Positions 7,152-32,000 of a stretch of 32,000 bases of DNA are shown in pieces. The position numbers and the translations under genes are program-made. This DNA is from Candidatus Saccharimonadota bacterium (GTDB lineage: Bacteria > Patescibacteriota > Saccharimonadia > Saccharimonadales > UBA4665). Location of the stretch: contig CP064992.1 in NCBI GenBank assembly GCA_016699935.1, forward strand, positions 510,001 through 542,000, in the 5' to 3' direction. Within the stretch, counting starts at the first letter, position 1. The number at the start of each line of letters is the position of its first letter. The notes under the pieces are model-generated. The model made no database searches. It saw only the letters and a list, made by a program, of their open reading frames with translations, and was not told the origin of the DNA.

Positions 7152-8080
7152 ATGATTACGACGCTGGCGGGGGAAAATGAGGTGGAGCGGCAGGCGGAGC
7201 TGCGGCGTGTCGTTGCTGTGTTTGAAAAAGAGTATAGCGATATGGGTGTGGAAAGGCTGGATGGTGAAGAGGCGTCATATGAGCGGATGGTAGCAGCGGG
7301 GCAGAGTTTGCCCTTTTTGGTACCCCGAAAGCTTGTTGTACTACGAGCGCCGGGAGCGAACAAAGAGTTCGTGGAGAAGTTCGAGGAGTTCATGTTGTCG
7401 GTTTCTGATACGAACGATGTCATTATCATTGAGCCAAAGTTAGACAAGCGCCTGAGTTACTACAAAACAACTAAAAAACAAACGGATTTCAAAGAGTTTG
7501 CGGTGCTAGATGCCAGTGGATTAGCGCGTTTTGCTACTGACTACGTCAAAGAGCTGGGTGGCAGTATTTCGAGCAATGATGCGCGGTTGCTTGTGGAACG
7601 CGTTGGGACGAATCAGCTTGGCTTGCAGCAGGAGCTCGATAAGTTGCTCGCTAATGAACTAATAATTACGCGGGAGTCCATAGAAAATCTGACCGAACAA
7701 ACACCCCAAAGTAATGTATTTGAGTTACTCGATGCCGCCTTTGCCGGTGACACCAAGCGTACCATGCGCCTCTACGACGAACAGCGGGCGCTGAAGGTCG
7801 AGCCACAGCAGGTTATCGCCATGCTCGCCTGGCAGCTCCATGTACTGGCGGTCGTGAAAACAGCAAAAGAACGGAGCGCCGACGACATCGCGCGGGAGGC
7901 GAAGCTAAACCCGTTTGTAGTTCGGAAGACGCAGAGCCTGGCGCGACACATTAGTCTCACTCGGCTCAAGCAACTTATTACCTCCTCCGTGAGTTTGATG
8001 TACGCACGAAGACCGAGAGCATCATCCCCGACGAAGCCGTCCGCTACTATTTGCTCGAACTTGCATCAGTTCATTCATAA
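7152..8080 (+). CDS. holA: DNA polymerase III delta subunit (HolA), one frame change near 7985
   Basis: The length and pattern fit (..GQSLPFLVPRKLVVLR.., ..NVFELLDAAFAGDTKRTMRLYDE..). After the shift the reading is ..LRELDVRTKTESIIPDEAVRYYLLELASVHS, ending at TAA 8078-8080. The listed 345-aa tail is out of frame. Confidence 0.75.
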
Positions 8081-8694: not shown

Positions 8695-10518
8695 ATGGAC
8701 GAACAGCAAAAACAACTCGTCGCGAAGCTCAAAGACGCTCAAAACGTCTTAGTGACTGTCAGTAAAAATCCTTCAGTAGACCAGCTGGCGGCCGCTATCG
8801 GTTTAACGCTGGCGCTCAACAAACTCGACAAACACGCCACGGCTGTTTACAGCGGCCAGACTCCAAGTACCATCGAGTTTTTGAAGCCGGAAGAAACACT
8901 GGAATCGAACACCGATAGTCTCCGGGATTTCATCATTGCGCTCGATAAATCCAAGGCTGACAAGCTGCGCTATAAGGTTGAAGACCAAGTCGTTCGGATT
9001 TTTATAACACCATACCGGACGTCCATTTCCGAAAATGACCTAGAGTTTAGCCAGGGTGACTTTAACGTTGACGTCGTTATTGCATTAGGTGTGAAAGAAC
9101 AGACAGATCTTGACGAAGCAATTAGTGCTCATGGACGTATTTTGCATGACGCAACGGTATCGACTGTTTCTATAGACGGTCAGTCGGAGCTCGGCACACT
9201 AAACATCACCGATACGAACGCAAGTAGCTTGTGTGAATTGGCCACAAGGCTAGTGGCTGATCTTGGCAAAGATATTCTTGACGCCCAAATAGCAACAGCA
9301 TTACTGACCGGTATTGTTGCCATGACCGACCGGTTTAGCAATGACCGGACAACACCAGACACAATGAGCCTGAGCGCAACACTTATGTCGGCCGGGGCAA
9401 ACCAGCAGTTAATTGCAAACGAACTGGCTGAACCTCTTCGCGCTCCACAGTCCATCGATGCATCGCCTGCCGATGAAAGCACGGTACCGCAGAAAGACCC
9501 TGGTACTCTTGAAATTAATCATGTTCAAGATGCTTCCGAAGCTCTGTCTAAAGATGTAATACCGTCAGAGCTGCTAGAGTCCGACTTTGGTGTACAAGAT
9601 GAGGCCGGTACTGAACCGCAGGCACCTGAGTCGCCACAAATTCACGTGGACGAGAATGGTAAGATTGTATTTTCTCCAGAAACAGAAACAGAAACCGAAA
9701 CCGACACACGTATCGGCAAGGCTCGTGCAGTCGGCGAGGGGGGTATGCCAGAAGATAACGAAGACCCATTGGCTACAAGAGAACGTATGATTGAGCCTCC
9801 GTCTCGCTCGGGTGATTTAACGGCGAATACGAAGCGAGAAGAGCTTGATGCGTCAACCGAGGAGCTTACATTGCCGCCGCTTGATACACCAATGCTATCT
9901 CACGACGACACGGCAATAACGCTTCCAGAATTATCATCTCCGCCAGAGCCTGTGTTGCCCCCGACGTCTGAGATTATTACACCCCAGCTAAGTGCGGTTG
10001 AAACGCCAACCCCGGTTGTGGATGCCACTGCCACACCTTCAGATACGTTCGACGAACAGGTAATTGATACAGAGGAACAAACACTCACAGATATTGAAAA
10101 AGCAGTTGGAAGCTCGCATGCCCAAGAAAGTGTCTCTGTGCCTGACGACGGGAATAGCATCAATGATGCTCGCAGTGCTGTCGAGGCTGCCTTAGCTTCG
10201 GCCGGGTCTCAGGCACCGCTTTCCCCAATTACCGCCTTGAACGCGCAACCGCTTGGCGAGGATTTGCACACACCTCCTTCAGATCAGTCGCATTTTCAGC
10301 CAGCTCCAGGGTTTGCGGCACCACCGATATTAGCCGAGGCTCTTCCGGGTGATACGCCAGCCGACCAAACACTTGACATGCCTCTGCCAGCTTCATCTGA
10401 CACTGTCTTCCAGCCTCAAATGCCTGTGGGTTCTACAACTCAGCCACAGCAAAAGATACAGGGCTACCGGCTGCTCCGTCAGTTCCACCTCCCCAATTTT
10501 CCCCAACGTATAAACTAA
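8695..10518 (+). CDS. degenerate DHH/NrnA-like N-terminal domain fused to a long acidic Pro/Thr/Glu-rich tail
   Basis: The N-terminal 240 aa follow the NrnA layout (..NVLVTVSKNPSVDQLAAAIGLTLAL.., ..FNVDVVIALG.., ..SIDGQSELG..NASSLCELA..). However, the metal-binding His/Asp of motif I and the DHH triad (here DGQ) are replaced. Residues from about 250 to 607 are low-complexity (ETETETETDT, PPEPVLPP..). Confidence 0.45.
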   Translation: MDEQQKQLVAKLKDAQNVLVTVSKNPSVDQLAAAIGLTLALNKLDKHATAVYSGQTPSTIEFLKPEETLESNTDSLRDFIIALDKSKADKLRYKVEDQVVRIFITPYRTSISENDLEFSQGDFNVDVVIALGVKEQTDLDEAISAHGRILHDATVSTVSIDGQSELGTLNITDTNASSLCELATRLVADLGKDILDAQIATALLTGIVAMTDRFSNDRTTPDTMSLSATLMSAGANQQLIANELAEPLRAPQSIDASPADESTVPQKDPGTLEINHVQDASEALSKDVIPSELLESDFGVQDEAGTEPQAPESPQIHVDENGKIVFSPETETETETDTRIGKARAVGEGGMPEDNEDPLATRERMIEPPSRSGDLTANTKREELDASTEELTLPPLDTPMLSHDDTAITLPELSSPPEPVLPPTSEIITPQLSAVETPTPVVDATATPSDTFDEQVIDTEEQTLTDIEKAVGSSHAQESVSVPDDGNSINDARSAVEAALASAGSQAPLSPITALNAQPLGEDLHTPPSDQSHFQPAPGFAAPPILAEALPGDTPADQTLDMPLPASSDTVFQPQMPVGSTTQPQQKIQGYRLLRQFHLPNFPQRIN

Positions 10519-10551: not shown

Positions 10552-10672
10552 ACCTGAGTCTCAAAACCGTCTCCACTTGTACTTGTGTCATTCCCATGAA
10601 GGCGGGAATCCATTTCATATATCTGGATCCCAGCCTTCGCTGGGATGACATCGTGGGGGTTTGAGATTCAGG
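10552..10672. mobile_element. 121-bp MITE-like element, copy 1 (double-hairpin core, imperfect terminal inverted repeats, 7-bp TSD)
   Basis: The terminal repeats are cctgagtctcaaaac and gtttgagattcagg. The core hairpins are gtcattcccatgaaggcgggaatcc (10587-10611) and ggatcccagccttcgctgggatgac (10625-10649). TCTTTAA flanks both sides at 10545-10551 and 10673-10679. The element is about 90% identical to copy 2. Confidence 0.8.
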
Positions 10673-11586: not shown

Positions 11587-12876
11587 ATGGCATCACGATT
11601 ACCAACACCAGGCGGAGACGATGGTACTTGGGGGGCAATCCTCAACGATTATCTTGCGCAAGCTCATAAAACCGACGGCACACTAAAAGACGATGTTGTC
11701 ACTGCGGCAGCATTAGCTCCAGGTGCTGTGACGGCTACAGGGGTTGCTGACGCAACTATTTCCGAGGCTAAGCTAGACGGGGCATTGCAGGCAAAGGTGA
11801 ATGGTTTGGGTGGTGGCGGTTCTCTAACCTTGTCTGGTGACGTCACTGGGCTAAGTACAGCAACAGTAGTCGCCAAGGTCAATGGAGTAACTGTATCTGG
11901 TACCCCAGCAGCTGGACAAGTTCTAAAAGCTACCAGTGCCTCAGCAGCAACCTGGCAAGCAGATGACACTGGCAGTGGTGCGGTCACGAGTGTTGCCGGT
12001 AGGACTGGTGCAGTTACACTTACGAAGACAGATGTTGGACTAGGTAATGTTGATAATACATCAGATGCGGCTAAGCCGGTTTCGACATTGGTTCAAACAG
12101 CCCTCAATTCAAAAGCAGACGATAGTGCAGCAGTGCACAACACTGGCGCTGAAACAGTTGCTGGTGTTAAGACCTTCTCAAGCTCTCCTGTTGTGCCAAC
12201 TCCTACGACGAACACTCAAGCGGCCAATAAATCATACGTTGACGGCGTAGCCGGTTCCGGTGCGCCAGATGCGTCAGCATCTACAAAGGGCATCGTACAG
12301 CTTACTGGTGATCTTGGTGGTAGCGCTACGGCGCCAACTGTACCGGGACTTGCTGGCAAGGCAAATACCAGCCATACCCACGCAGCAGCAGACATTACAT
12401 CTGGCACAATCGCGTCGGCTCGACTAGGTTCTGGCACAGCCAATGGTACAACGTACCTGCGCGGTGACGGCACCTGGGCAGCCGTATCAGGCGGCGTAGG
12501 TGGTGTCGCGGTTACTGGCACCCCGAGCGCTGGGCAAGTCCTAAAAGCGACGAGTCCAACCGATGCTACTTGGGCTGCTGATGCTACAGGAAGCGGGTAC
12601 ACATGGAATTTCCGAAGCATTTCAGCTGATGATACTGCAGCAGATGGCGACTACATGCTTGTTGATACTAGTGGATCTGGCGTTACGGTTACATTACCTG
12701 CACCTGTGAGTGGTGCTGCGGTACGTGTTAAACGAATGACTGCCGGTTCAAATAGTGTGCAAATAGTGCCCCAAAGTGGTCTAATTGACGGATCGGGTGT
12801 TGGATCTCATGTTCTCGGCAACCAATGGGATGCTATGGAATTTGTTAGCAATGGTACGAACTGGTACAGAGGATAA
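11587..12876 (+). CDS. phage tail-fibre / minor-tail-like repeat protein (429 aa)
   Basis: The motifs are LPTPGGDDGTWGAILNDYL (N-terminus), SVAGRTGAVTLTKTDVGLGNVDNTSDAAKPVS, KGIVQLTGDLGG, HTHAAADITSGTIASARLG and YLRGDGTWA. All of these are typical of phage fibre or minor-tail proteins. It is Gly/Thr/Ala-rich and has no signal peptide. The C-terminal 70 aa are paralogous to the C-terminus of the 603-aa ORF. Confidence 0.75.
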   Translation: MASRLPTPGGDDGTWGAILNDYLAQAHKTDGTLKDDVVTAAALAPGAVTATGVADATISEAKLDGALQAKVNGLGGGGSLTLSGDVTGLSTATVVAKVNGVTVSGTPAAGQVLKATSASAATWQADDTGSGAVTSVAGRTGAVTLTKTDVGLGNVDNTSDAAKPVSTLVQTALNSKADDSAAVHNTGAETVAGVKTFSSSPVVPTPTTNTQAANKSYVDGVAGSGAPDASASTKGIVQLTGDLGGSATAPTVPGLAGKANTSHTHAAADITSGTIASARLGSGTANGTTYLRGDGTWAAVSGGVGGVAVTGTPSAGQVLKATSPTDATWAADATGSGYTWNFRSISADDTAADGDYMLVDTSGSGVTVTLPAPVSGAAVRVKRMTAGSNSVQIVPQSGLIDGSGVGSHVLGNQWDAMEFVSNGTNWYRG

Positions 12877-12890
12877 AGGGGATATAGGAC

Positions 12891-13385
12891 ATGCCATTTA
12901 CATCAAACGGAGCCAACCTATACAACGCACAAGACGTATATATCACTAACGTCGCCCAAGACGAAATATTAAAATATAACGGTGGCACAGCCAAGTGGAA
13001 CAATATAAATCCTGTTGGTTTTGCGGCACTAGCAAACAAGGGCGGCCTAGAGAGCTCGTCAGCAACTTCCGGTTCAAATATTGCTGTTGATCTGAATAGC
13101 GGCAACGTGCACCATCGGACACTGACAGGTGCTGGGGCAACAGCTACTTTTACTATTAGTAATGTTCCGGCGGTGACATCAACAGCTGTGTCATTTACGC
13201 TTTATGTCGTTCAGGGAGCTACACTTAAAACTGTAAACTGGAATTCAAGCGTGACCGTTAAGTGGGCAGGCGGTACCGCACCGACATTGACACAAACGTC
13301 GGGCGCAACCGATGTGTTTGTTTTCGAAAAGATTGATGGTATTTCGGGGTGGTTTGGATCACTCGTGGGAAGTAATTTCTCATAG
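12891..13385 (+). CDS. small tail-associated-like protein (164 aa) sharing the N-terminal module of the next ORF
   Basis: MPFTSNGANLYNAQDVYITNVAQDEILKYNGGTAKWNN aligns with MPFTGSGTGIQNANDIYFTLLAQNHVLRYNGTTAKWNN in the next ORF. The C-terminal beta-rich part ..VNWNSSVTVKWAGGTAPTLTQTSGATDVFVFEKIDGISGWFG resembles a small domain common in phage proteins. Confidence 0.6.
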   Translation: MPFTSNGANLYNAQDVYITNVAQDEILKYNGGTAKWNNINPVGFAALANKGGLESSSATSGSNIAVDLNSGNVHHRTLTGAGATATFTISNVPAVTSTAVSFTLYVVQGATLKTVNWNSSVTVKWAGGTAPTLTQTSGATDVFVFEKIDGISGWFGSLVGSNFS

Positions 13386-13441
13386 ACAACTCATAGTAAT
13401 TAATCATTTTTTAAGCATCATCACGAGCAGAAGGAAGGTCC

Positions 13442-15253
13442 ATGCCATTTACGGGATCTGGAACGGGCATACAAAATGCAAATGATATTTACTTCACTTT
13501 GCTTGCACAAAATCATGTTCTTCGTTATAACGGAACAACCGCTAAATGGAATAACGTCTCGCTTGTTGTTGGTACTGCAGATCTTGCCAACGACTCAGTT
13601 ACTGAACCGAAACTAGCGATATCTAATAGCCCGACTTTAAACCAAGTGCTTCGCTGGAATGGCACCGATCTGGAGTGGGTGACTATTTCTTATGAACCAA
13701 CTATCTCTACCGGCACCATTGCGCAATACTGGCGTGGTGATAAATCCTGGCAAACACTCGATAAAACCGTTGTCGGACTTGCAAATGTTGACAATACTTC
13801 AGATAGTACCAAAAATGCTGCTACAGCCACTCTTACGAACAAGACAATATCTGGTGCAACAAACACACTGTCCAACATCCCACAATCAGCAGTTACCAGT
13901 CTGACGACCGATTTAGCTGCAAAAGTCCCTCTTTCTACTGCAACGACAAAAGGGGATATCCTAGTATCAACCGGCGCTGGTGCTCTTTCTCGATTGGGTG
14001 TTGGAGCGAATAATTTTGTACTTACAGCAGATAGCGCACAAGCAACAGGGGTAAAATGGGCTACAGTTTCTGGGGCATTTGAGCCAACCATCACCGCTGG
14101 CACGATTGCGCAATACTGGAGGGGTGATAAATCCTGGCAAACACTCGATAAAACCGCTGTTGGGCTTGCTAATGCCGATAATACCGCTGACATCTCTAAA
14201 AACGTTCTAAGTGCGACAAAACTTACTACGGCACGAACAATAAATGGAGTTAGTTTTGATGGCTCTGCCAACATTACGGTAGCCGATAACGCAAAACTAG
14301 CATTATCTACTGTGACAACTAAAGGTGACATTGTTGCGGCTACTGGGTCTTCGACTTTGACTAGACTTGGTGTTGGCACTGACGGACAAGTTCTTACTGC
14401 GGATAGTTTACAGGCATCTGGAATCAAATGGTCAACACCTGCAACTGCGCCTGTTACTAGTGTCGCTGGTAGAACGGGAATAGTATCGCTTACCAAGTCT
14501 GACGTTGGTCTTGGTAATGTTGACAATACTGCAGATGCAAGTAAACCTATTTCTACTGCAACTCAAACAGCGCTTGATCTTAAAGTTGATGAGACTATAT
14601 CTGTAAGTGGCGGTACTTCGCTTACAGGCGGAGGTGTTTTAACTGCAAATCGCACACTGACACTGCTAAACGATTCTGCAACGCCCGGAAATAGCATGTA
14701 CTACGGTACTAATGGCACAGGTACCAAAGGCTTTTACGCCATCCCAACAGGTGATCCTACTATGGGTGGTGATCTAAGCGGAACAGCTTCAAATGCCCAG
14801 CTTGGTACGGGAGTTGTTGGTACGACTGAGCTAGCGGCGACAGGAGTGACTACGGCAAAGATTGCCGATAGTGCTATTACAGAGCCAAAATTAGCTATGA
14901 ATAACAGCCCAGCCGCTGGAAAAGTCATCGGCTGGGATGGTTCGAGTATGACCTGGACAGTAGGTTATGCTTATACACGAGTAAATGTTACAGGAACCCC
15001 CGGGACTTACACAGCAAACATATTTGATTATATCTTTGCTGATGCGACATCTGGCGGTATAACAATCACGTTACCAGCCCCTCAACTCAATTCCTTTGTG
15101 CGAATAAAGAGGATTTCGAGCGGTTCAAACGGTGTCCAGGTAGTTGCGCCAAATGGTTCATTTATAGACGGTAGCGGCGTCGGCTCCGACGTACTCGGTA
15201 GTCAATACGATAGTCGCGAGTACTGGAGCGATGGTACGAACTGGTATCGCTAG
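13442..15253 (+). CDS. phage tail-fibre-like repeat protein (603 aa) with an internal duplication
   Basis: The module EPTI(S/T)xGTIAQYWRGDKSWQTLDKT(V/A)VGLAN(V/A)DNT(S/A)D occurs twice, with a 34-nt identical DNA core at about 13735 and 14123. It also has TTKGDI(L/V)..LxRLGVG..VLTADS twice, SVAGRTGIVSLTKSDVGLGNVDNTADASKPIS, and a C-terminal domain shared with the 429-aa ORF. Confidence 0.75.
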   Translation: MPFTGSGTGIQNANDIYFTLLAQNHVLRYNGTTAKWNNVSLVVGTADLANDSVTEPKLAISNSPTLNQVLRWNGTDLEWVTISYEPTISTGTIAQYWRGDKSWQTLDKTVVGLANVDNTSDSTKNAATATLTNKTISGATNTLSNIPQSAVTSLTTDLAAKVPLSTATTKGDILVSTGAGALSRLGVGANNFVLTADSAQATGVKWATVSGAFEPTITAGTIAQYWRGDKSWQTLDKTAVGLANADNTADISKNVLSATKLTTARTINGVSFDGSANITVADNAKLALSTVTTKGDIVAATGSSTLTRLGVGTDGQVLTADSLQASGIKWSTPATAPVTSVAGRTGIVSLTKSDVGLGNVDNTADASKPISTATQTALDLKVDETISVSGGTSLTGGGVLTANRTLTLLNDSATPGNSMYYGTNGTGTKGFYAIPTGDPTMGGDLSGTASNAQLGTGVVGTTELAATGVTTAKIADSAITEPKLAMNNSPAAGKVIGWDGSSMTWTVGYAYTRVNVTGTPGTYTANIFDYIFADATSGGITITLPAPQLNSFVRIKRISSGSNGVQVVAPNGSFIDGSGVGSDVLGSQYDSREYWSDGTNWYR

Positions 15254-17036: not shown

Positions 17037-17158
17037 AAGTGGGGAGAGAATCGAAATTCTAGTTACATTAACTATCGGTGGGTGATAAAGAGCAGGTTTC
17101 CACTAGGCATATCAAACAGTGGATGCTTGAACCTTGTTGCTCACCAAAAGGAGGCTAC

Positions 17159-19307
17159 ATGAGCCAAATAACTACTAAAACAATTAACCCTTATGGCAAA
17201 GACCTTGTGGTTGTCGAAACAGAGTTTTGCGGTCGCAAACTGACACTAGAAGTAAACCGCGTTGGATTCCGTACTACGGCCAGTGTACTGGCACGCTACG
17301 GCGACACTGTGGTGCTTGGTACTGCCATGATGGGCAAACCAATCAAGGTATGGACTATTTCCCGCTTAGCATCGACTACGAAGAAAGTTTTATGCTGCAG
17401 GTAAGATCAGTGGCAGCCGTTTTATCAAGCGCGAAGGTCGTCCTAGCGACGATGCCATCCTTATCGGCCGACTTATCGACCGACCAATTCGTCCGCTTTT
17501 CCCAAAGGGTTATCGAAACGAAGTGCAGGGTGTTGCTAGTGTCCTCAGTATGGATCCGGCATTTCGCCCAGATATGATTGCCATGATCGCCATGAGCACA
17601 GCTCTAATGCTCACGGGTGCACCGTTTGACGGTCCAGTTGCCGGCGTCCGAGTCGGCATAAACGAAAAAGGCGATTACCAAGCATTCATGACTGCCGAAG
17701 AGCTAAATGCCAGCAAACTTGATCTAGTCGTCGCCGCTCGTGAAGGTGGTGTTATGATGGTCGAAGCCGGCGCCAATGAAGCTACCGAAGAAGAAGTCGT
17801 GGCAGCCTTGAAGTTTGCCGAGGAAGCAATTAAGCCCGCATTGGCAGCGCAAACCGAACTTGTCAAAAGGTCGGGGTGGAAGCCACCGAATATGAATTGG
17901 TGCTCCCAGACGAAAAATCCAAAAAGCCGTCGATGCTTGGGTTGAGGGAAAACTAGGTGAAGACCTACGAGCACCTTACCCAGAGCGAAACGAATTAGTC
18001 GTGACACTTCGCCAGCAAATGCACGATGCCTTTGCCGAAGAAATTGGGGCTGACGATTATGGCGTGTTACGTAGTGAATACGATGAGGCTTTTCAGATGG
18101 CGTTACACAAAGATGTGCGTAGAGGAATCGTCGAAGACGGCGTGCGACCAGATGGCCGCAAGCTCGACGAAATTCGTACGTTGAGCTCAGAAGTTGGTCT
18201 GCTGCCTCGTGCTCATGGCTCGAGCCTATTTACCAGGGGTATGACGCAGGGAATGAATATAGTTACCCTGGCGCCACTCAGTTATTCTCAAATGGTGGAC
18301 ACCATGGAGCGCAACGAAGAACGCCGCTACATGCACCACTACAATGCTCCCGGCTACACTGTCGGTGAAGTACGTCGACTGGGTTCACCTGGACGCCGCG
18401 AAATTGGCCATGGCTACTTGGCAGAGCGGGCACTGAGTGCCGTGCTGCCAGATGAGTCAGTCTTCCCCTACGCCATTCGCTCGGTTACCGAGATTATGAG
18501 TCAAAACGGATCAACTAGTATGGCAGCGACATGTTCTCGAGTTGTCTAGCTCTAATGGATGCTGGCGTACCACTCAAAGCGCCCGTTTCGGGTATTGCCA
18601 TGGGACTTATGGTGGACGGCGACAAGACTTACATATTGAGTGATATCGCTGACGCCGAAGATTTTGCCGGTGATATGGACTTCAAAGTAACCGGTACCAC
18701 CGTAGGCATCACAGCCTTGCAGATGGATATGAAAGTACACGGTTTGCCAGTAACAGTGCTAGCGGAAGCTTTAGCCCAAGGCAAAGACGGCCGAGCACAC
18801 ATATTGCGCCATATGCTAGAAACAATGCCAGAACCACGGGCAGAACTAAGCCCGTATGCCCCTCGGGTTGAAAGCATACAGATTAACCCTGACAAGATTC
18901 GCGAAATTATCGGTAAGGGTGGCGAGACTATTCAGAAAATTACCGGTGAAACTGGCACAGAAATCGACATCAAAGATGATGGTACGGTGATGATCGCTAG
19001 CCCAGATGGAGATAGCATACAGCGCGCCAAAGACTGGATTCTTTCTATCGTGGAAGATCCAGAAGTGGGCAAAATATATGTCGATAAGCCAGTAGTTTCT
19101 GTCCTGGACTTCGGTGCGTTCGTGCAGATTATGCCCGGCAAAGACGGTCTGGTGCATGTCAGCGAGATGAGCGAGGAACGGGTCAATAAACCGAGTGACG
19201 TTGTCAAAGAAGGCGACCTGGTCACCGTAAAACTCGTCGCCATAGACGACCGCGGTCGCCTGCAACTCAGCATGAAAGCCGCGCAACGGGAACTTGAAAA
19301 GAAATAG
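17159..19307 (+). CDS. pnp: polynucleotide phosphorylase (PNPase), at least four frame changes
   Basis: An AAAGGAGG Shine-Dalgarno precedes the start. Five ORF fragments read continuously: MSQITTKTINPYG.., ..MDYFPLSIDYEE.., ..FIKREGRPSDDAILIGRLIDRPIRPLFP.., ..DGRKLDEIR..HGSSLFTRG.., ..MDAGVPLKAPVSGIAMGL... KH (IIGKGGETIQKI) and S1 (GKIYVDKPVVSVLDFGAFVQI) domains follow. Confidence 0.95.
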
Positions 19308-20604: not shown

Positions 20605-22590
20605 ATGGATAATAAACCAGGAATGAAGAATGGAGAACGAAGAATGCAAAAACCACAAAATAGCCGAGGGGGTGGGAATCAGCGCCGGTCGGGGCAGAAG
20701 AATAGTCCACAGCAGAACGGTAGCTCACAACCGTCAGCAAATGGGAAACCGGCCGTGAGCCGTGGTGCTGCTGTGCGGGCGCAAAAGCGAACGCAGATGG
20801 ATGCTCAGCGCGTGGCAAACCAGTGGATGCCAGCGCAGGTTGACGAAAACCGACGAGCCAACTTCATAGACGATACACCACGTCTAAAGATTATCGGCCT
20901 CGGTGGTATGGACGGCGGTGGTAGCAAGAACATGATGCTTGTGGAGTATGTGAACGATGCGGTTGTCATTGACGCCGGAAACGACCTCAGTGTCGACCTG
21001 CCAGGCATAAACTACGGTATTGCCGACACGGCATACATGGAAAACATCCGGCACAAGCTTCGTGCCTATATCATCACGCACGGACACCTCGACCATATTG
21101 GTGGCTTGCCGCACATTGTACCGAAGTTCCCGGCGCCAGTGTATGGCAGCAAATTTACCATTGGCCGCGTCCATGAGATTTTTGAGAATTTTGGTTTGCC
21201 TATGCCCGAAGGTTTTGAACTCAAAACAGTTGAGATGAACGAAGATACACACGAACGGCTCAAAATTGGCGAATTCTACGTCGAGCTAGTGCGGGTGACG
21301 CACTCGATCCCTGGGAGCACCATTGTGGTACTCGATACACCAGTCGGGCGTATCATTAACACTGGTGACTTCCGGTTCGATCCTAACCCGCTAGACCATG
21401 AACGTACCGATATGGAGCGGCTGATTGAGCTTGGCAATGAAGGCGTACTGGCGCTTCTGAGCGAAAGCACTACTGTGGAGCGTCTGGGACGAACGCCTTC
21501 TGAAAGTACTATCGAAAAAAGCTATGTCGACATAATGCAGCAAGCGCCTGGGCGTATCTTCGTTGGCGTGTTCAGCACGAACATGAACCGTATACAGATG
21601 ATTGTGAATGCTGCTGTCCACCACGGGCGCAAAGTCGCCATAGATGGTCGCAGCATGGTCAGTACCCTCGAGATGGCAGTGCGCCACGGGTTTATGAAGA
21701 TTCCTAAGGGCACATTCATACCGATTGCCCAGGTTGGCACCATGACAGATGGCCAAGTCGTTGTGATTTGTACCGGAAGCCAGGGCGAGCCATCTTCGGC
21801 ACTCCAGCGTATGGCCAACGGCGAACATCGCCATATTAAACTCAAAGAGCAGGACACGGTTATTCTTTCGAGTACACCAATCCCAGAGAGCGGCAACGAC
21901 GCGCTTATTGGTCAGATGGTCGATGACCTCGTAAAAAACCACGTACATGTGTTTGAACACCGCAATCACGACCTCGATAAGGTTGGCCCACTGCACGTAT
22001 CTGGTCATGCTAGTCAGGACGAATACGCCGAAATGATTCAGATGACAAAACCTAAGTTTTTCATCCCAATTTACGGCGCTTTCCGTGTCAAACAGCGTCA
22101 TATAGACCTCGCTATAGAGCAGGGTATACCACGCGCAAACTGTCTGAATGCACTGAACGGAGAAGTAATTGCCCTCACACCAGATAAGATGGAAATCATA
22201 GGTGAAGTACCCTCCGGTACTATCCTTGTCGACCAAACGGGAGCTATCGTGAGTAATGTGGTGGTGAAGGACCGCGTACTTCTGGCAGAGGAAGGCCTCG
22301 TCGCTGTTGTACTCACGGTCGACAAAAAGACAGGAAACTTGCTCACGAGCCCCGACATCATCAGTCGTGGATTCATATACATGCGTGAGCAAGAGGAAAT
22401 TATGAATGGTCTCAGGGGCGAAGTGCGCCGGGCTGTCACGCAGCGTTACAAGCGCATAGACATAGACCGCTTTAAGGCAGAGTTAAAAGACCACATTACC
22501 CACTACTTGTTTGAGCAGACCGGCCGTAGTCCCATAGTCATACCGGTGATAAACATCATCGGTGGCAAGAGCGAAGATACTGCAGCGTAA
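20605..22590 (+). CDS. rnj: ribonuclease J with an N-terminal basic extension of about 85 aa
   Basis: The metallo-beta-lactamase motif is YIITHGHLDHIGG. The beta-CASP and C-terminal regions are present, and the 661-aa ORF is intact. The first 85 aa or so are Gly/Gln/Arg/Asn-rich. Confidence 0.9.
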   Translation: MDNKPGMKNGERRMQKPQNSRGGGNQRRSGQKNSPQQNGSSQPSANGKPAVSRGAAVRAQKRTQMDAQRVANQWMPAQVDENRRANFIDDTPRLKIIGLGGMDGGGSKNMMLVEYVNDAVVIDAGNDLSVDLPGINYGIADTAYMENIRHKLRAYIITHGHLDHIGGLPHIVPKFPAPVYGSKFTIGRVHEIFENFGLPMPEGFELKTVEMNEDTHERLKIGEFYVELVRVTHSIPGSTIVVLDTPVGRIINTGDFRFDPNPLDHERTDMERLIELGNEGVLALLSESTTVERLGRTPSESTIEKSYVDIMQQAPGRIFVGVFSTNMNRIQMIVNAAVHHGRKVAIDGRSMVSTLEMAVRHGFMKIPKGTFIPIAQVGTMTDGQVVVICTGSQGEPSSALQRMANGEHRHIKLKEQDTVILSSTPIPESGNDALIGQMVDDLVKNHVHVFEHRNHDLDKVGPLHVSGHASQDEYAEMIQMTKPKFFIPIYGAFRVKQRHIDLAIEQGIPRANCLNALNGEVIALTPDKMEIIGEVPSGTILVDQTGAIVSNVVVKDRVLLAEEGLVAVVLTVDKKTGNLLTSPDIISRGFIYMREQEEIMNGLRGEVRRAVTQRYKRIDIDRFKAELKDHITHYLFEQTGRSPIVIPVINIIGGKSEDTAA

Positions 22591-22721
22591 AAAACTGCTA
22601 TAGGGTAAACAACAAGCCCGCCGAGTTGCAAAAAACACAGAAGGAAATCGCTGCCGAACAGCAAGCTCGTTTTCAGGCTATGCGCGAACGCCTCCTCAAC
22701 CAAGACCCCCGCGTTGATTAA
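22575..22721 (+). repeat. direct repeat, left copy (147 bp), spanning the last 16 nt of rnj and its 3' flank
   Basis: It is identical to 24251-24396 except for one extra C in a C-run (gaccccc versus gacccc). This was verified by eye along its whole length. Confidence 0.95.
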
Positions 22722-22835
22722 GTACGCAGCATCTCTTTCGTGAATAGCAGAATGAATAAATTAACCAGCCGTGAAGCATAGCAGCTTATCTGACTAGTAA
22801 ACGGTCGCCGTTGCATACTATCCCTCGTATAATAG

Positions 22836-22864
22836 TTGACCATATAACAAAAATGTGCTATTAT
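22836..22864 (+). promoter_or_regulatory. cassette promoter (TTGACC-17-TGcTATTAT, extended -10)
   Basis: TTGACC lies at 22836-22841 and TATTAT at 22859-22864, preceded by TGC. It sits in an AT-rich stretch just inside the left repeat. Confidence 0.5.
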
Positions 22865-22897: not shown

Positions 22898-23509
22898 ATG
22901 CAATGTGAAAAACTAGGCGACGGCCATATTACAAATGGCGATTTTTCTACGGCTCCTCCTACTGCAGGGGTGAGTCGGTTATCGCAGACTTTTGAGAGAC
23001 TGTGTGAGTCAGAAATCACGAATGACGCATTACTACCAAAAGAGGTCATCGCAACGGGCAGCAATATAGTACGTGATGGGCAAATCGGCGTTATTAAAAG
23101 TAATACGGGTTTTGAAGTATCATTTAAGTTGACGGACGAGGCATATGCTGATTTAGAGAGTCGTGTAGATTTGCCGCCGAGCGATGGAACGATCCGGCGT
23201 AAACAGCCGTATAAGTTTCTAGTGGCCTACGACAGTGAGGAGCAAAAAGTTATAAGCAGCGAAAGAGTTGTAGAGACGGGAACTGCTGAGAGGTATACGA
23301 TTAATGGTATTACGGCAGATATCTCCCATTATGATCCAAACTGGCAGGCACTCAACGGCTTAGTTACCATTATGGTTCCCAATGAAGCTGCTGGCGCTGA
23401 AGCGGGGGAATTAGCTAGTAATGTAGATGGAATCTGTCGTACACTTTTCGGGTGTAGCGATGTATTTCAACCTCCTGACGAAGCCGCAGAAGCATTGCAA
23501 AAAAACTAG
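22898..23509 (+). CDS. hypothetical protein (203 aa), possibly the N-terminal half of one 456-aa cassette protein
   Basis: I recognise no family. The stop lies right after the A7 run at 23499-23505. With one more A the frame reads ..AEALQKKLAYLKHHRLEESPETAYVPELVRQE.. straight into the next ORF. Confidence 0.5.
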   Translation: MQCEKLGDGHITNGDFSTAPPTAGVSRLSQTFERLCESEITNDALLPKEVIATGSNIVRDGQIGVIKSNTGFEVSFKLTDEAYADLESRVDLPPSDGTIRRKQPYKFLVAYDSEEQKVISSERVVETGTAERYTINGITADISHYDPNWQALNGLVTIMVPNEAAGAEAGELASNVDGICRTLFGCSDVFQPPDEAAEALQKN

Positions 23510-23556
23510 CGTACTTAAAGCATCACCGTCTAGAAGAATCACCCGAGACAGCATAT

Positions 23557-24266
23557 GTGCCAGAGCTTGTTCGTCAAGAGGTATTTCCGGGTCATTTGGC
23601 TTATGTTGACCCAAACAAGCACAAGAAATATGAAGAGGAATTTGGCCAAATACTCATATTTCATAACGTTGCGCTCGAAGAAGATATCGTAAGCATCGTG
23701 AAGAATGGCCTACTTGCAGCCCGCGAAAGGACAGAACGTGGCATATTAGCGGGTGGCTTATCAGTATTGAGTGATTTGAAGGCAGGTGGTGCCGATAGCG
23801 CATACGTGCGCATGGTGACCTCAGAGAGCATAAAAATGGAAAAACAACTGATGATTATGGAGGAATGGCGGTTTTGTTAAGGCCATCCCTTCTAGATCGA
23901 ACGGATTGGTACGCGTACCCTAATGATAGCTATGGATCGACAACGCCAGAGGATATAGCCACTAGCTTACCACCGGCAGGACTCTTTCGTCACATTAACG
24001 AATGCGGCTTAGATAATGTTGAGCAATATAATGAATCAATGTTTGCTACCGGCATCTCCCCAAATGAAATTGCTGGCATCGTTGTTAGTGATGAAGAATC
24101 CCAGCGGCGTATAATAACAAGATTGAAAGCCAGCGGAGTTACAGTAGTGTATGGTATTGAACTTGAAGATTTTGTGCAAGTAGCCACAACCTATACGCAA
24201 ATGAACGCCATTTCTCATGGAATAAACGGCGTCCGACAGCAGAAATTAGTAGATACTGCAGCGTAA
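23557..24266 (+). CDS. putative ADP-ribosyltransferase/Tpt1-fold-like protein, one frame change at the A5 run 23840-23844
   Basis: Fragments 23557-23880 and 23865-24266 join as ..SESIKMEKTTDDYGGMAVLLRPS... The motif order resembles H-Y/R-E ART-fold enzymes: ILIFHNVALEEDIVSIVKNGLL, then AYVRMV, then VLLRPSLLDRTDWYAYPNDSYGS, then QYNESMFATGISPNEIAGIVV. The last five codons (DTAA-stop) lie inside the right direct repeat. Confidence 0.35.
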
Positions 24267-24396
24267 AAAACTGCTATAGGGTAAACAACAAGCCCGCCGA
24301 GTTGCAAAAAACACAGAAGGAAATCGCTGCCGAACAGCAAGCTCGTTTTCAGGCTATGCGCGAACGCCTCCTCAACCAAGACCCCGCGTTGATTAA
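24251..24396 (+). repeat. direct repeat, right copy (146 bp)
   Basis: See the left copy at 22575-22721. The two copies enclose 1529 bp (22722-24250). Confidence 0.95.
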
Positions 24397-24417
24397 CTTT
24401 CCCTAAGCAGATAGGCA

Positions 24418-24538
24418 CCTGAGTCTCAAAACAGTTTCCACTTGTACTTGTGTCATTCCCGCGAAGGCGGGAATCCATTTCATATATCTGGATCCCAGCC
24501 TTCGCTGGGATGACAACCTGGGGTTTTGAGACCCAGAT
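24418..24538. mobile_element. 121-bp MITE-like element, copy 2 (7-bp TSD ATAGGCA)
   Basis: The terminal repeats are cctgagtctcaaaac and gttttgagacccag(at). The hairpins are gtcattcccgcgaaggcgggaatcc (24452-24476) and ggatcccagccttcgctgggatgac (24490-24514). ATAGGCA lies at 24411-24417 and again at 24539-24545. Confidence 0.8.
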
Positions 24539-24884: not shown

Positions 24885-27141
24885 ATGGCGAAAAAGAAAA
24901 GCAAGCTAAAAAGAAAGTGGCAGCACCAGTCGAGCGAGAACCGTCGCCCGTTGTGGGCTATGTGCTTGCGGTCGTGTTCATACTGACGGCTATCTTCATA
25001 TTTTTAGGCGGTTTTCACGCCGGTGGTACGCTACCCAAAGGCCTTTTTGGGGCTATGAGCTGGCTGTTTGGCTGGGGCGCGTGGCTCGTGCCGATTAGTC
25101 TGCTGTACTGGGGGTATTACAAATTTACTAATGACGATCACCGTGTGCCGCGTGGACGTGTTTTCAGTATGTATATGTTCCTAGTGCTTATGTCGGCATG
25201 GTTTTTCACCGCATTCGCACGTTCCAGCGATGAGCCAGGGGTAGCAACACAAATCGTAGGCGGCAGCGGCGGTGAAGTTGGCGGTGCGGTAGGTGACGCG
25301 GTACTGTCGGCACTCGATAAAGTACCGGCGAGTCTGTTGTTTTTCACCTTTGGTCTGCTGACATTCTTCTTTGCCTTTGGCATATCACCAAAGGTTATAC
25401 TGAGCCTTGGCAATCTCTTCCACCGCCGTAACAGTGAGCCAGAAGGTGAACTAGCAGCATTGAAAGCCAAAGCGGCTGAGAGTGGCTTCCAGCTGAATGA
25501 AGGTGTACCGGTCGTGAAGCACAGTGAAGGTTCCCTTGCGAAAGAACAAGTCCATCACTCCAATTTCCGGAATACTGCACAAAAATTGAGCACAAACGAA
25601 ACTCACGAAGCGCTGACGACTGCGAGCGACCCAGATTGGAAACTGCCAGGCGTCGACTTACTCGATCAGCGCCAAGATAAGGCCGATGCAGGCAATGTTG
25701 AGGGCAATGCCCGGATTATTAAAGAAACTTTTGCCAACTTTGCTATAGATGTGGAGATGGAGGGGGCAAATATCGGTCCACGCGTCACACAGTATACACT
25801 GCGGCCACCGACTGGAGTGAAACTTACGAAAATAACGGCACTCGAAAACAACCTCGCTCTGGACCTCGCGGCGACGACCATTCGTATGGAAGCGCCTATA
25901 CCGGGAAAGAGGGCGGTTGGTATAGAAGTGCCAAACGTAAAGGGTGCTACTGTGCGATTAAGCTCTATTTTCCAGTCGCGCGAGTGGGCAGAGTCGGAGG
26001 GAGCGCTCACATTTGCTATTGGTAAGGACATCGTCGGACATAGCGTAGTTGCGGATCTGGCACGTATGCCGCACATCCTAGTTGCTGGTCAGACCGGCTC
26101 TGGTAAATCTGTCATGATAAACGACATTTTAACAAGCTTGCTGTATCGCAACAGTCCAAGTGATCTCAAACTTATCCTTGTCGACCCCAAACAGGTGGAG
26201 CTTACGCCGTACAATGATCTTCCGCACTTGCTGACACCCGTGATTCACGAGCCAGAAAAGTGCATTAGTGCGCTCAAATGGGCAGTGGCTGAAATGGAGC
26301 GACGTCTGCGCACTATGGCAGAGGTGAGTAAGCGCAATATTGAGGAGTACAATCTCATAAAGCCCGAGGAAAAAATGCCGTACGTCGTTATTGTCATAGA
26401 TGAGCTCAGTGACCTCATGATGATGGCTGCTCGTGATGTCGAGGCGCTTATCGTTCGTGTGGCGCAAAAAGCTCGAGCAGCCGGAATACATCTCATTCTT
26501 GCGACGCAGCGACCGAGTGTGAACGTCATCACGGGGCTCATTAAAGCCAACGTACCGGCTCGGATTGCCTTTACCACTGTGAGCCAAGTAGATAGCCGTA
26601 CCATCATAGACCAAATGGGCGCAGAGAAACTGCTGGGGCGAGGAGATATGCTGTACCAAACCTCTGAAATGCCCGCACCAAAGCGTGTTCAAGCTGCGTT
26701 TGTGAGCGACGGCGAAACGGTGAAGGTGAATGATTTTATACGCGAGCAGCGGGCACAGACTACAACGACGAAGTCGTCAGCCAACCAGTACAAATTGGTA
26801 AGGGTGGCGTAGTCGTGACCGATACATCGCATGACAATGCCGACGAAGACATGTTCCACGATGCCGTACGCGTGGTCATAGAAAGTCGCAAGGCCTCCAC
26901 GTCACTACTGCAGCGGCGGCTACGGATCGGTTATGGGCGTGCAGCGCGGCTCATGGAGGAAATGGAAGAGCAGGGTATTATAGGCGCAGCTGACGGCAGT
27001 CGACCCGCGATGTATTGGTTAGTTCACTCGACCAAGTCTTTGGTGGCGGTGGGGTTCAGGGGCGATGACGCAGGAGTCGATCTTGACGAATATGGCGTTC
27101 CTACCGAACCAAATGATAGTAGCGAATACCTTGCTCGCTAA
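24885..27141 (+). CDS. ftsK: DNA translocase FtsK, at least two or three frame changes
   Basis: N-terminal transmembrane helices are present. The motor domain has Walker A (VAGQTGSGKS), Walker B (VVIVIDELSDLMM) and ..ILATQRPSVNVITG... The gamma winged helix reads ASTSLLQRRLRIGYGRAARLMEEMEEQGIIG and lies in the 26815-27141 fragment. The likely start is ATG 24885 (MAKKKSKLKRK) in an adjacent frame, and the track ORF starts at TTG 24866. Confidence 0.9.
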
Positions 27142-28348: not shown

Positions 28349-28809
28349 ATGGCTCGATCATTCAACCAAGTAATCTTAATGGGGAATCTCACGCGAGATC
28401 CTGAGCTGCGGCAAACGCCGAACGGCCAGAACGTGTGTAGTTTTTCACTGGCGCTCAACCGTGCCTACAAGGGTGCCGATGGCCAGTGGCAGGAAGCGAC
28501 TGACTATGTCGATATCGTGGCCTGGGGCCGCTTGGCGAGCGTGTGGCGCAGTATCTAAATAAAGGCAGTCAATGCCTCGTAAACGGGCGTTTGCAATCGC
28601 GAAGCTGGGAGCAGGACGGCCAAAAACGTAACAAAGTTGAAGTGAATGCCCAGGATGTCACATTCCTAGGCGGACGCGGCAGTGATGGCGGTAGCAATGG
28701 TGGCAGCTCAGAAAGTAGCTCGGCTCGCCCAGCACCTAAGAAAAAGGACGATGTTGTCATAGAAGACGTGGGCGACGAGCCCATCAACCTAGATGACATC
28801 CCGTTTTAG
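28349..28809 (+). CDS. ssb: single-stranded DNA-binding protein, one frame change near 28545
   Basis: The OB fold reads MARSFNQVILMGNLTRDPELRQTPNGQNVCSFSLALNR... It continues as ..VAQYLNKGSQCLVNGRLQSRSWEQDG.. in the 28543-28809 fragment. A Gly/Ser-rich linker and the C-terminal tip DDIPF follow. Confidence 0.9.
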
Positions 28810-30244: not shown

Positions 30245-30274
30245 CTGTCATTCCCGCGCAGGCGGGAATCCATC
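30245..30274 (+). repeat. left 30-bp inverted repeat / hairpin flanking the GIY-YIG gene
   Basis: The sequence ctgtcattcccgcgcaggcgggaatccatc is the exact reverse complement of 30561-30590. It has an internal 8-bp stem attcccgc/gcgggaat. Confidence 0.95.
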
Positions 30275-30276
30275 TT

Positions 30277-30615
30277 ATGAATACATACTACGTCTACATA
30301 TTAGCAAGTAAGCCAAACGGAACGCTCTATATTGGCGTGACGAATAATCTCGAGCGTCGGCTGTATGAGCACAAGAATACTCTAGCTGATGGTTTTACGA
30401 AAAAATATGGCGTAAAACAACTTGTTTATTATGAAGAATATAATAGCGTAGAGGCGGCCATTATTCGGGAAAAACAACTCAAGAAATGGGAGCGTGCGTG
30501 GAAGGTTCGACTTATAGAAGAGCGAAACTCGTATTGGAACGATTTGAGTTTAGAGTGGGGGATGGATTCCCGCCTGCGCGGGAATGACAGCGAAACTGTC
30601 AGGATTCAGTCATGA
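30277..30615 (+). CDS. GIY-YIG nuclease family protein (small stand-alone URI-domain type)
   Basis: The motifs YYVYILAS..GTLYIGVTNNLERRLYEH.. give GIY/YIG, then Arg, then Glu. ..IIREKQLKKW.. follows. The last 17 codons or so (..MDSRLRGNDSE..) are translated from the right hairpin repeat. The stop overlaps the tlyA start. Confidence 0.85.
   Translation: MNTYYVYILASKPNGTLYIGVTNNLERRLYEHKNTLADGFTKKYGVKQLVYYEEYNSVEAAIIREKQLKKWERAWKVRLIEERNSYWNDLSLEWGMDSRLRGNDSETVRIQS
30561..30590 (-). repeat. right 30-bp inverted repeat / hairpin flanking the GIY-YIG gene
   Basis: The sequence is gatggattcccgcctgcgcgggaatgacag, a perfect inverted copy of 30245-30274. Confidence 0.95.
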
Positions 30616-31766: not shown

Positions 31767-32000
31767 GAGCGAACAAGCGAACCGGTGCGTAAGCGCCGGC
31801 TTTAGGAGAGGGAGGAGAGTCGTTTCGGATTCATTCCGAAACAACGAGGAGGGACGGTAGTCCCTCCTGAGCGTACTAAAGCGTACCGGTGCGTAAGCGC
31901 CGGCTTTAGGAGGAGGAGGAGAGTCGTTTCGGATTCATTCCGAAACAACGAGGAGGGACGGTAGTCCCTCCTGAATATGGACGGTAGTCCCTCCTGAATA
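31767..32000. repeat. tandem repeat of a three-hairpin unit, 104-nt period, 2.2 copies or more, running off the window
   Basis: Unit starts lie at 31781 and 31885, and a partial third copy lies at 31979-31997. Each unit contains ccggtgc-gtaa-gcgccgg (GNRA-type loop), gtttcgg-attcatt-ccgaaac and aggaggga-cggtag-tccctcct. The copies differ by 1-2 nt. Confidence 0.85.

Follow-up and report, generated by a model that had tools for sequence, protein, structure and literature searches.

The locus and its reading frame

The stretch of DNA analysed here, hereafter the window, comprises 32,000 nucleotides (nt) from a Candidatus Saccharimonadota bacterium (positions 510,001 to 542,000 of contig CP064992.1, assembly GCA_016699935.1), and the gene under study lies in it among core genes, namely those for trehalose-P synthase, the Pol III delta subunit, TruB, PNPase, RNase J, FtsK, S6 and S18, SSB and EF-P. 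Between RNase J and FtsK is a 1.5-kb segment of lower GC content (0.44, versus 0.51 in the flanks), with a direct repeat at either end that is perfect over 135 nt (22575-22709 and 24251-24385) and can be extended to ~147 nt. Inside this cassette are three open reading frames (ORFs) on the plus strand, 22898-23509, 23557-23880 and 23865-24266, which occupy coordinate frames 2, 1 and 0; no phage genes and no integrase were found near them. A candidate promoter upstream agrees with the consensus at 10 of 12 positions, as a pure pattern match in a consensus scan (Table 1). The interpretation argued below, to which a probability of roughly two in three is attached, is that the three ORFs are a single 456-amino-acid (aa) gene split by missing bases, that its product belongs to a large, unnamed family of ADP-ribosyltransferases (ARTs) with a DarT-like domain, and that the copy in the window is possibly an attenuated orphan.

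Adding a single A behind each of two homopolymer runs, A7 and A5 (Table 1), yields an uninterrupted 456-aa frame whose junctions, ..AEALQKKLAYLKHH.. and ..IKMEKTTDDYGGMAVLL.., are the same as those given by an earlier reading of the sequence (the first-pass annotation), and all four motifs quoted there from the C-terminal half are found in the corrected protein. That reading had proposed a single protein of ~456 aa, and the proposal is borne out by an orthologue, P0001, found by a word-indexed search of ~5.8 billion proteins: it is an intact, 471-aa single ORF that spans all three pieces with 59% identity and 97% query coverage, and by tblastn its residues 29-218, 218-333 and 328-471 map in order onto the window frames of the three ORFs. 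At site 1 the corrected sequence reads CAA AAA AAA CTA GCG TAC (QKKLAY), where P0001 has QKTQAY, and at site 2 GAA AAA ACA ACT GAT GAT TAT (EKTTDDY), where P0001 has GKTLDQY. Alignment with P0001 also places residues that are invariant in the family between the ORFs, K..Y..HH being encoded 5' of the nominal GTG start of the second ORF and D..YGG 5' of the nominal ATG start of the third. Because P0001 is intact, the tblastn order is consecutive and invariant residues lie inside the inter-ORF stretches, the join is not one that arises by chance.

Table 1. Features of the ART-like gene, its flanking repeats and the partner genes of its relatives. Positions refer to the window unless a locus is named; residue numbers here and in the text are those of the 456-aa window protein, except where P0001 numbering is stated.
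Feature	Position	Strand	Remarks
Candidate sigma-70-like promoter	22836..22864	+	TTGACC-17-TATTAT, extended TG; 34 nt 5' of the start codon
Whole gene; protein of 456 aa with N-terminal domain, linker helix and DarT-like ART domain	22898..24266	+	read across two single-base gaps
N-terminal alpha/beta domain, ~aa 23-185	22964..23452	+	AlphaFold2 model of the first ORF of the window
Linker helix, K-x3-Y-x2-H-H motif (K202, Y206, H209, H210)	23480..23526	+	spans frameshift site 1
Frameshift site 1, A7 run	23499..23505	+	one A missing; frame 2 to frame 1
DarT-like ART-fold domain (predicted), ~aa 225-430	23569..24185	+	Foldseek, Pfam DarT on relatives, secondary structure
H256, strand-1 His in ILIFHNV, followed by helix ..IVKNGLL	23662..23664	+	paired by hhalign with DarT H13
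R278	23728..23730	+	invariant in 56/56; candidate counterpart of DarT R51
Y303-V-R305, [FY]-x-R strand	23803..23811	+	aromatic in 60/60 members, Arg in 58/60
Frameshift site 2, A5 run	23840..23844	+	one A missing; frame 1 to frame 0
R335-T-D-W-Y-A-Y-x2-D344-x2-G347	23898..23936	+	most conserved block of the family
N379-E380, candidate catalytic Glu at strand start	24030..24035	+	E in 57/58; aligns with DarT E160
Left repeat copy	22575..22722	.	perfect 135 nt to 22709, on to ~22722 with a C5/C4 indel
Right repeat copy	24251..24397	.	contains the last 16 nt of the gene (..DTAA*)
Partner genes, 114-126 aa	L007 7415-7786; L009 7885-8256; L011 7695-8057; L013 6527-6907; L014 7234-7578; L015 6478-6825		downstream of ART-like genes in relatives

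Origin of the frame breaks

The window is collinear, at 74-78% DNA identity, with metagenome contigs from ENA that carry P0001 (locus L001), where the gene order is PNPase, IVP, UDG, RNase J, P0001, AAA_14, a 100-aa gene, FtsK, S6, S18 and SSB; in this related Saccharibacteria genome P0001 thus lies where the window gene does, between RNase J and FtsK, and it is intact in at least 15 contigs. Measured against the L001 orthologues, frame breaks occur in the window at four sites in PNPase (17148-19306) and at one site each in RNase J (22575-22614), FtsK (26734-26755) and SSB (28525-28537). Nine of the ten frame shifts in the window consist of a single missing base at or near a short homopolymer, and the two copies of the flanking repeat themselves differ by a C5/C4 indel. 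Serial frameshifts in essential genes are not expected.

Two biological origins of the breaks have to be weighed against this pattern. A genuine pseudogene, in which both frameshifts are real and the cassette holds a decaying orphan toxin gene whose immunity partner has been lost, is improbable: two independent frameshifts within 1.4 kb would suit such a history, as would the absence of partner and ADP-ribosylglycohydrolase (ARH) genes and the loss of two conserved arginines in the clade formed by the window protein and P0001 (see below), and orphan toxin genes often become inactivated, but the same one-base deletions in the essential PNPase (four times), FtsK, SSB and RNase J genes are biologically implausible, the ORF is otherwise free of stops with all other conserved residues kept, and its orthologue is intact. 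A regulatory origin, by which programmed -1 ribosomal frameshifting or transcriptional slippage at the A-runs would set the amount of full-length toxin, is hardly credible. Site 1 does read A_AAA_AAC, a classical -1 slippery heptamer, with a TAG stop directly after it, but site 2 (GAA AAA C) is not a canonical heptamer, P0001 is a plain ORF in which neither A-run is present (its junctions read CAG AAA ACA CAA at site 1 and AAT GGG AAG ACA at site 2), and the window-wide pattern of deletions accounts for both sites more simply. Conserved programmed frameshifting was rejected on the ground that P0001 has no slippery run at either junction.

Because the essential PNPase, FtsK, SSB and RNase J genes are broken alike, assembly indel errors in the form of under-called homopolymers are the simplest cause, and comparison with the intact genes makes such errors in homopolymer runs the most likely explanation of the two breaks in the ART-like gene. 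Throughout, the window has the look of an assembly prone to indels and probably made from long reads, so that all ORF calls in it need caution.

Domain architecture and fold

The first-pass annotation had read an ART fold of the DarT/Tpt1 kind from the motif order of the C-terminal half, preceded by a ~200-aa N-terminal domain of unknown kind, and both parts of this reading held up under structure prediction. The fold search that it had proposed was run on an AlphaFold2 model of the orthologue P0001, not of the window protein, built with a 60-sequence alignment (pLDDT 85.5, pTM 0.86). In a Foldseek search against PDB the eight best matches to this model were all DarT structures: Thermosipho DarTG 7omu (E 4.8e-5; TM score 0.30 over the 376-aa DarTG fusion), E. 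coli DarT1 8baq (E 4.3e-4; TM score 0.55 over the target), M. tuberculosis 7yk3 (two chains) and Thermus 7omv, 7omw, 7omx and 7omy. Next in the list came CteC (8ux2, 8htc) and Tpt1 (7yw4, E 0.22, probability 0.44), with probabilities of 0.91-1.00 for DarT versus 0.44-0.51 for CteC. Among predicted viral structures the model matched phage and giant-virus proteins that are uncharacterised, a 'minor capsid protein' of a phage, and the ORF32 and ORF30 proteins of baculoviruses; a baculoviral 'ORF28 family' of DarT-related ARTs has been described (PMC9503650).

Sequence profiles point the same way in relatives of the window protein. When 60 relatives were scanned against Pfam, PF14487 (DarT) was the sole family matched by more than one member; its matches in four of them (best E 5.5e-5) cover profile positions 151-190, ~40 residues that comprise the strand of the catalytic Glu and beyond, and in P0049 the match at residues 449-488 scores 23.4 bits against a cut-off of 22.5 bits. 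A locally built DarT hidden Markov model (HMM), run against 192 family members, gave no more than weak matches (best E 2.4e-4). The corrected protein as a single-sequence query gave nothing significant in Pfam, PADLOC, PDB sequences, PHROGs or NCBIfam (sub-threshold in NCBIfam, E 0.06-0.1), the NCBIfam model toxin_DarT (NF048013) reaching 13 bits against a cut-off of 150. The family profile matched just J-domain and helical proteins among PDB sequences, and these matches were judged spurious.

The N-terminal domain was modelled from the first ORF of the window with a 38-sequence alignment (pLDDT 86.9, pTM 0.81), and the confident model consists of one long helix, an antiparallel sheet of ~7 strands and further helices. 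No significant match to PDB folds was found for it with Foldseek (best E 0.047, TM scores 0.28-0.39), and the CYTH-like, Med18/20 and NEAT-like matches in the list were dismissed as noise. It is co-conserved with the ART domain, profile matches spanning both, and this obligatory ~200-aa domain and its linker set the family apart from DarT, which has neither, as does the lack of a significant sequence match to DarT for the window protein or P0001.

The reading of one protein, with an N-terminal domain of unknown kind and a C-terminal half predicted to take an ART fold of the DarT/Tpt1 kind, is supported from three sides: by the predicted structure and its fold matches, by the weak but specific Pfam DarT matches in relatives, and by the gene neighbourhoods described below (ARH, small partner, MuF). 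DarT (PF14487/DUF4433), the single-stranded-DNA ART toxin of DarTG, is the best structural match. Tpt1/KptA, an RNA 2'-phosphotransferase, shares the ART superfamily and the weak fold match to 7yw4, but that match is far weaker than those to DarT, the R-H-R-H tetrad was not identified, and there is no RNA-repair gene context.

Conserved residues and the candidate NAD site

Across the family the conserved positions are R278, G282, D293, G297-G-x-D300, [FY]303-x-R305, R335-T-D-W-Y-A-Y341, D344, G347 and N379-E380. Of the candidate active-site residues, H256, the Y303-x-R305 strand and N379-E380 follow the canonical order of an ART site for nicotinamide adenine dinucleotide (NAD), that is, strand-1 H or R, strand-2 aromatic or S-T-S, and strand-5 E or Q, and the family shares with DarT the sequence of strand-1 His, ..IL..G.LL helix, Arg, aromatic strand, TD loop and Glu at the start of a late strand. 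Alignment by hhalign to DarT sequences taken from PDB served solely as a guide to pairing residues; in P0001 numbering it sets H271 against H13, aligns the ..ILK.G.L helix, places D359..G362 against D117..G120 and E395 against E160. In the window protein D344..G347 thereby comes opposite the DarT loop that includes the base-locking TDRH119, and the region of E380 is the one matched by Pfam DarT in relatives. R278, like DarT R51, is placed after strand 1 and before the aromatic strand, in a part where the hhalign alignment is unreliable; from its position and conservation we infer that R278 may be the equivalent of R51, and Y303/R305 that of DarT Y71.

DarT catalysis needs R51 and E160, with H13, Y71 and H119 in supporting roles (PMC9967889), the catalytic Arg and Glu being R51/R52 and E160/E152 in the DarT proteins described (PMC9967889, PMC13621843), and the conserved residue set of the family appears compatible with this chemistry. 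The H-Y-E motif order that had been proposed for the C-terminal half stands in so far as the residues occur in that order. Its His is not family-wide, however: H256 is retained in members from the candidate phyla radiation (CPR) and replaced by A, S, T, N or C in members from Firmicutes, so that the motif is nearer to the Arg/Glu chemistry of DarT than to a strict H-Y-E triad, even if a strand-1 His that part of the family dispenses with is itself a difference from DarT.

A large unnamed family

The profile of the C-terminal half retrieved 59 relatives, none of which bears a name and most of which come from CPR bacteria, and an exhaustive profile search of 1.84 billion representatives, clustered at 50% identity, found 2,442 clusters at E <= 1e-3, 662 of them at E <= 1e-30. 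The matches nearly always span both halves of the protein, many with N-terminal extensions of 300-700 aa. Among GTDB species representatives there are 70 loci, most of them in Candidatus Saccharibacteria, including the oral Nanosynbacter and Nanosyncoccus, with other hosts among Yanofsky-, Azam-, Uhr- and Shapirobacteria, Oscillospiraceae and other Firmicutes; the family also occurs in prophage-like loci of Firmicutes and in some phages. Pfam, NCBIfam, PHROGs and PADLOC all lack an entry for it, and the window protein is best assigned to a new and as yet uncharacterised family of DarT-like ARTs that lies outside DarT as defined by sequence model or antitoxin.

One Azambacteria member, P0002 (L014 5001-7241), has an extra N-terminal region of ~300 aa with the motifs ..ADTYLANWDVVGLVFDNIM.. 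and ..RVDNGG..; by eye, its residues ~80-300 recall the catalytic loop of a PI3K/PI4K-like or atypical kinase, with no Pfam match.

Partner genes and phage head modules

In six of six metagenome loci a gene for a 114-126-aa protein lies directly 3' of the ART-like gene, often with overlapping stop and start (Table 1). All six are homologous to one another (in blastp, E 1e-28 to 2e-2, with <1e-4 for most pairs), and of the 56 GTDB loci that leave room 3' of the ART-like gene, 49 have such a partner directly after it. No match for it was found in Pfam, PHROG or PDB sequences, nor for the partner profile in Pfam and PDB; by analogy, it is likely to be an immunity or antidote factor. A gene for an ADP-ribosylglycohydrolase of ARH type (PF03747) adjoins the ART-like gene in ~24 loci, about one third. 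At least three arrangements occur, with the ARH gene downstream in convergent orientation, upstream in divergent orientation or on the same strand. A search for macrodomain antidotes around homologues had been proposed at first pass. It turned up no macrodomain or NADAR antidote in the window or in the nine homologue neighbourhoods inspected; relatives carry the small partner and often an ARH instead. The family therefore differs from DarTG in having an unrelated 114-126-aa partner, with or without ARH, in place of the DarG macrodomain or NADAR. The pairing of an ART-fold gene with a PF03747 ARH recalls DraT-DraG and the Tre1-Tri1 pairs of the type VI secretion system, but neither in sequence nor in fold was a link to DraT or Tre1 found, the small conserved partner is additional, and the window locus has no ARH.

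Some relatives are associated with phage head genes. P0139 and P0149 are C-terminal fusions of the ART module to Phage_Mu_F; in L015 the order is terminase, portal, MuF, ART-like gene, partner gene and prohead protease; and in a 927-aa 'head morphogenesis protein' of Pseudanabaena phage Pan1 the C-terminal half consists of the N-terminal and ART domains. By tblastn against 50,697 GenBank phages P0001 had no match, and P0055 matched one phage (Pan1). As documented by Jamet et al. (2017, PMC5576092) and Iyer et al. (2022, PMC9503650), fusion to MuF marks effectors that are packaged in the capsid and injected, as well as MuF polymorphic toxins. These four cases are akin to them, the small downstream gene of L015 being in the position of an immunity gene. 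In contrast to such toxins, the copy in the window is a stand-alone chromosomal gene with no Phage_Mu_F domain, outside any phage head module and with no immunity-like gene or phage genes nearby, and the ART domain is none of those named for MuF fusions (Alt/VIP2, N4-ART; PMC9503650), to which it has no Pfam match.

An orphan in a repeat-bounded cassette

The repeats that bound the cassette are copies of the 3' end of RNase J, encoding its C-terminal tail. The left copy contains the final 16 nt of the RNase J ORF, and its positions 22614-22721 are homologous to the tail of the orthologous 704-aa RNase J (tblastn residues 670-704 to 22614-22718). In addition, 41 nt of the left copy seem to come from the ART gene, namely from its 3' end (..DTAA*); as a result, RNase J ends 43 aa early, with its tail out of frame. 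In the related genome (L001), three copies of the RNase J tail (5894-5953, 7473-7532 and 8860-8919) bound the P0001 cassette and an AAA_14/DUF4143 cassette. Duplication of an attachment (att) site, tandem duplication followed by deletion, and an assembly artefact are candidate origins of the 135-nt repeat. At another Saccharibacteria locus, L011, 3' of RNase J, a ~105-nt direct repeat (3841-3946 and 5858-5946; 88-93% identical) flanks the gene just upstream of the ART homologue P0025, a hint that cassettes bounded by repeats are common in this region.

A partner HMM found nothing in six-frame translations of the window and L001. The window protein and the P0001 clade are, moreover, alone among the loci in having Ser and Ala for two near-invariant arginines (P0001 positions 372 and 399; window S357 and A384), and they have Tyr at P0001 position 318 where relatives have Phe. 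The loss of both the antidote genes and two conserved arginines suggests an attenuated or re-targeted enzyme, and on these residues and neighbours the window copy may be an attenuated or re-targeted orphan of a toxin/effector family. The window gene does stand alone, as the idea of a single-gene toxin or defence cargo would have it, but this is atypical, as the family normally has a downstream partner and often an ARH.

Possible activity and its alternatives

In the mechanism proposed, the protein would be cytoplasmic, with the N-terminal alpha/beta domain joined by the helical linker to a C-terminal ART domain nearest DarT. The ART domain would bind NAD+ through H256 and the Y303-x-R305 strand, after which R278 and E380 would help to transfer ADP-ribose onto a macromolecule, most likely a nucleic-acid base given the affinity with DarT, although a protein acceptor is also possible. 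The N-terminal domain is envisaged as packing on the ART domain and probably aids substrate recognition or regulation. In most relatives the gene is accompanied by that for the 114-126-aa downstream protein, a likely immunity or antidote factor, and often by an ARH that would undo the modification; in phages the two-domain module is fused to MuF or placed after it, as is known of effectors that travel in the capsid and are injected.

A protein-targeting mono-ART like CteC or Tre1, rather than a nucleic-acid ART, is possible but rather unlikely. CteC is among the fold matches, and ARH-type hydrolases such as DraG and Tri1 classically reverse ADP-ribosylation of arginine in proteins. DarT modification, by comparison, is reversed by macrodomain or NADAR enzymes (PMC9503650), so that the ARH neighbours favour a protein target; on the other side, the eight best fold matches and the sole recurrent Pfam match are DarT, and CteC scores well below DarT in probability. 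Decidedly improbable is the view that the ART-fold domain is no transferase at all, being either an NAD+ glycohydrolase that acts as an NAD-depleting toxin or a catalytically inert, domesticated protein. Recurrent ARH genes beside relatives imply that the family makes removable ADP-ribose conjugates, and the candidate catalytic residues R278 and E380 are kept in the window protein, against which stand the existence of ART-fold NADase toxins such as the Tne5 family (PMC13285283), the report of an inactive DarT-like protein in JCVI-syn3.0 (PMC13621843), and the lack of ARH and partner in the window clade together with its R-to-S and R-to-A changes at two conserved, possibly substrate-binding positions.

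Several observations weigh against the favoured interpretation, a single gene for a DarT-like ART. The TM scores are moderate (0.42-0.55 with the stand-alone, ~200-aa DarT chains) and the root-mean-square deviations high (7-8 Å), in comparisons made with the model of the orthologue in place of the window protein; neither the window protein nor P0001 has a Pfam DarT match even at E <= 10; and hhalign against DarT profiles is weak (E 0.069 with a 3-sequence and 0.0088 with a 120-sequence profile, global E 0.46). The frameshifts could be genuine, and with neither partner nor ARH in the window or L001/L016, and two near-invariant arginines replaced, the protein of this clade could be inactive.

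A broader proposal, unlikely enough to be offered as speculation, is that the family makes up an undescribed three-part ADP-ribosylation conflict system, composed of a DarT-like two-domain transferase, a novel ~120-aa immunity protein and an ARH eraser, with which Saccharibacteria and other CPR episymbionts, and phages by way of MuF-mediated packaging in the capsid, would act on the nucleic acids of their competitors or hosts. On this view the window copy, without partner and with its arginines substituted, would be a derivative caught in a cassette array with repeats at its borders, which grows as the RNase J 3' end is duplicated and would amount to an integron-like site of gene capture in Saccharibacteria.

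Other repeats and reading frames in the window

Apart from the cassette repeats, a ~120-nt intergenic repeat occurs at 10552-10671 and, just 3' of the ART cassette, at 24417-24536 (93% identical), with GC-rich hairpins (TGTCATTCCCGCGAAGGCGGGAATCC) in a pattern like that of miniature inverted-repeat transposable elements (MITE) or repetitive extragenic palindromic (REP) sequences. Its core hairpin recurs at 30246-30278 and 30561-30590, as a 30-nt perfect inverted pair 286 nt apart (30245-30590). At 31775-31974 a 96-nt GC-rich unit that contains hairpins (..GTCGTTTCGGATTCATTCCGAAACAACGA.. and GGAGGGACGGTAGTCCCTCC) occurs twice in tandem, at a spacing of 104 nt and with 97% identity between the copies. 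Two large ORFs of 429 and 603 aa at 11587-15253 contain repeated ..VGLGNVDNTSD..K.. units (direct-repeat families D2 and D4) and have weak Pfam matches to BppL_N, a domain of phage baseplates, and to the DUF5907 repeat; they are tail-fibre-like repeat proteins amid core genes.

Implications

For the window itself the outcome is the more modest one: a gene that is intact in principle, mis-called through assembly indels, and of which the local copy is an atypical orphan. The wider interest lies in the family, since work on phage defence and on conflict between bacteria turns more and more to toxins with an ART fold whose targets are DNA or RNA (DarT, pierisins, RhsP2). With at least 2,400 clusters at 50% identity, mostly in Saccharibacteria of the human mouth and of the environment, and an accessory set of N-terminal domain, ~120-aa partner and ARH unlike that of DarTG, the family, once characterised, would add an ADP-ribosylation system and a candidate effector to the poorly understood interactions of episymbionts with their hosts and of CPR bacteria with their phages.

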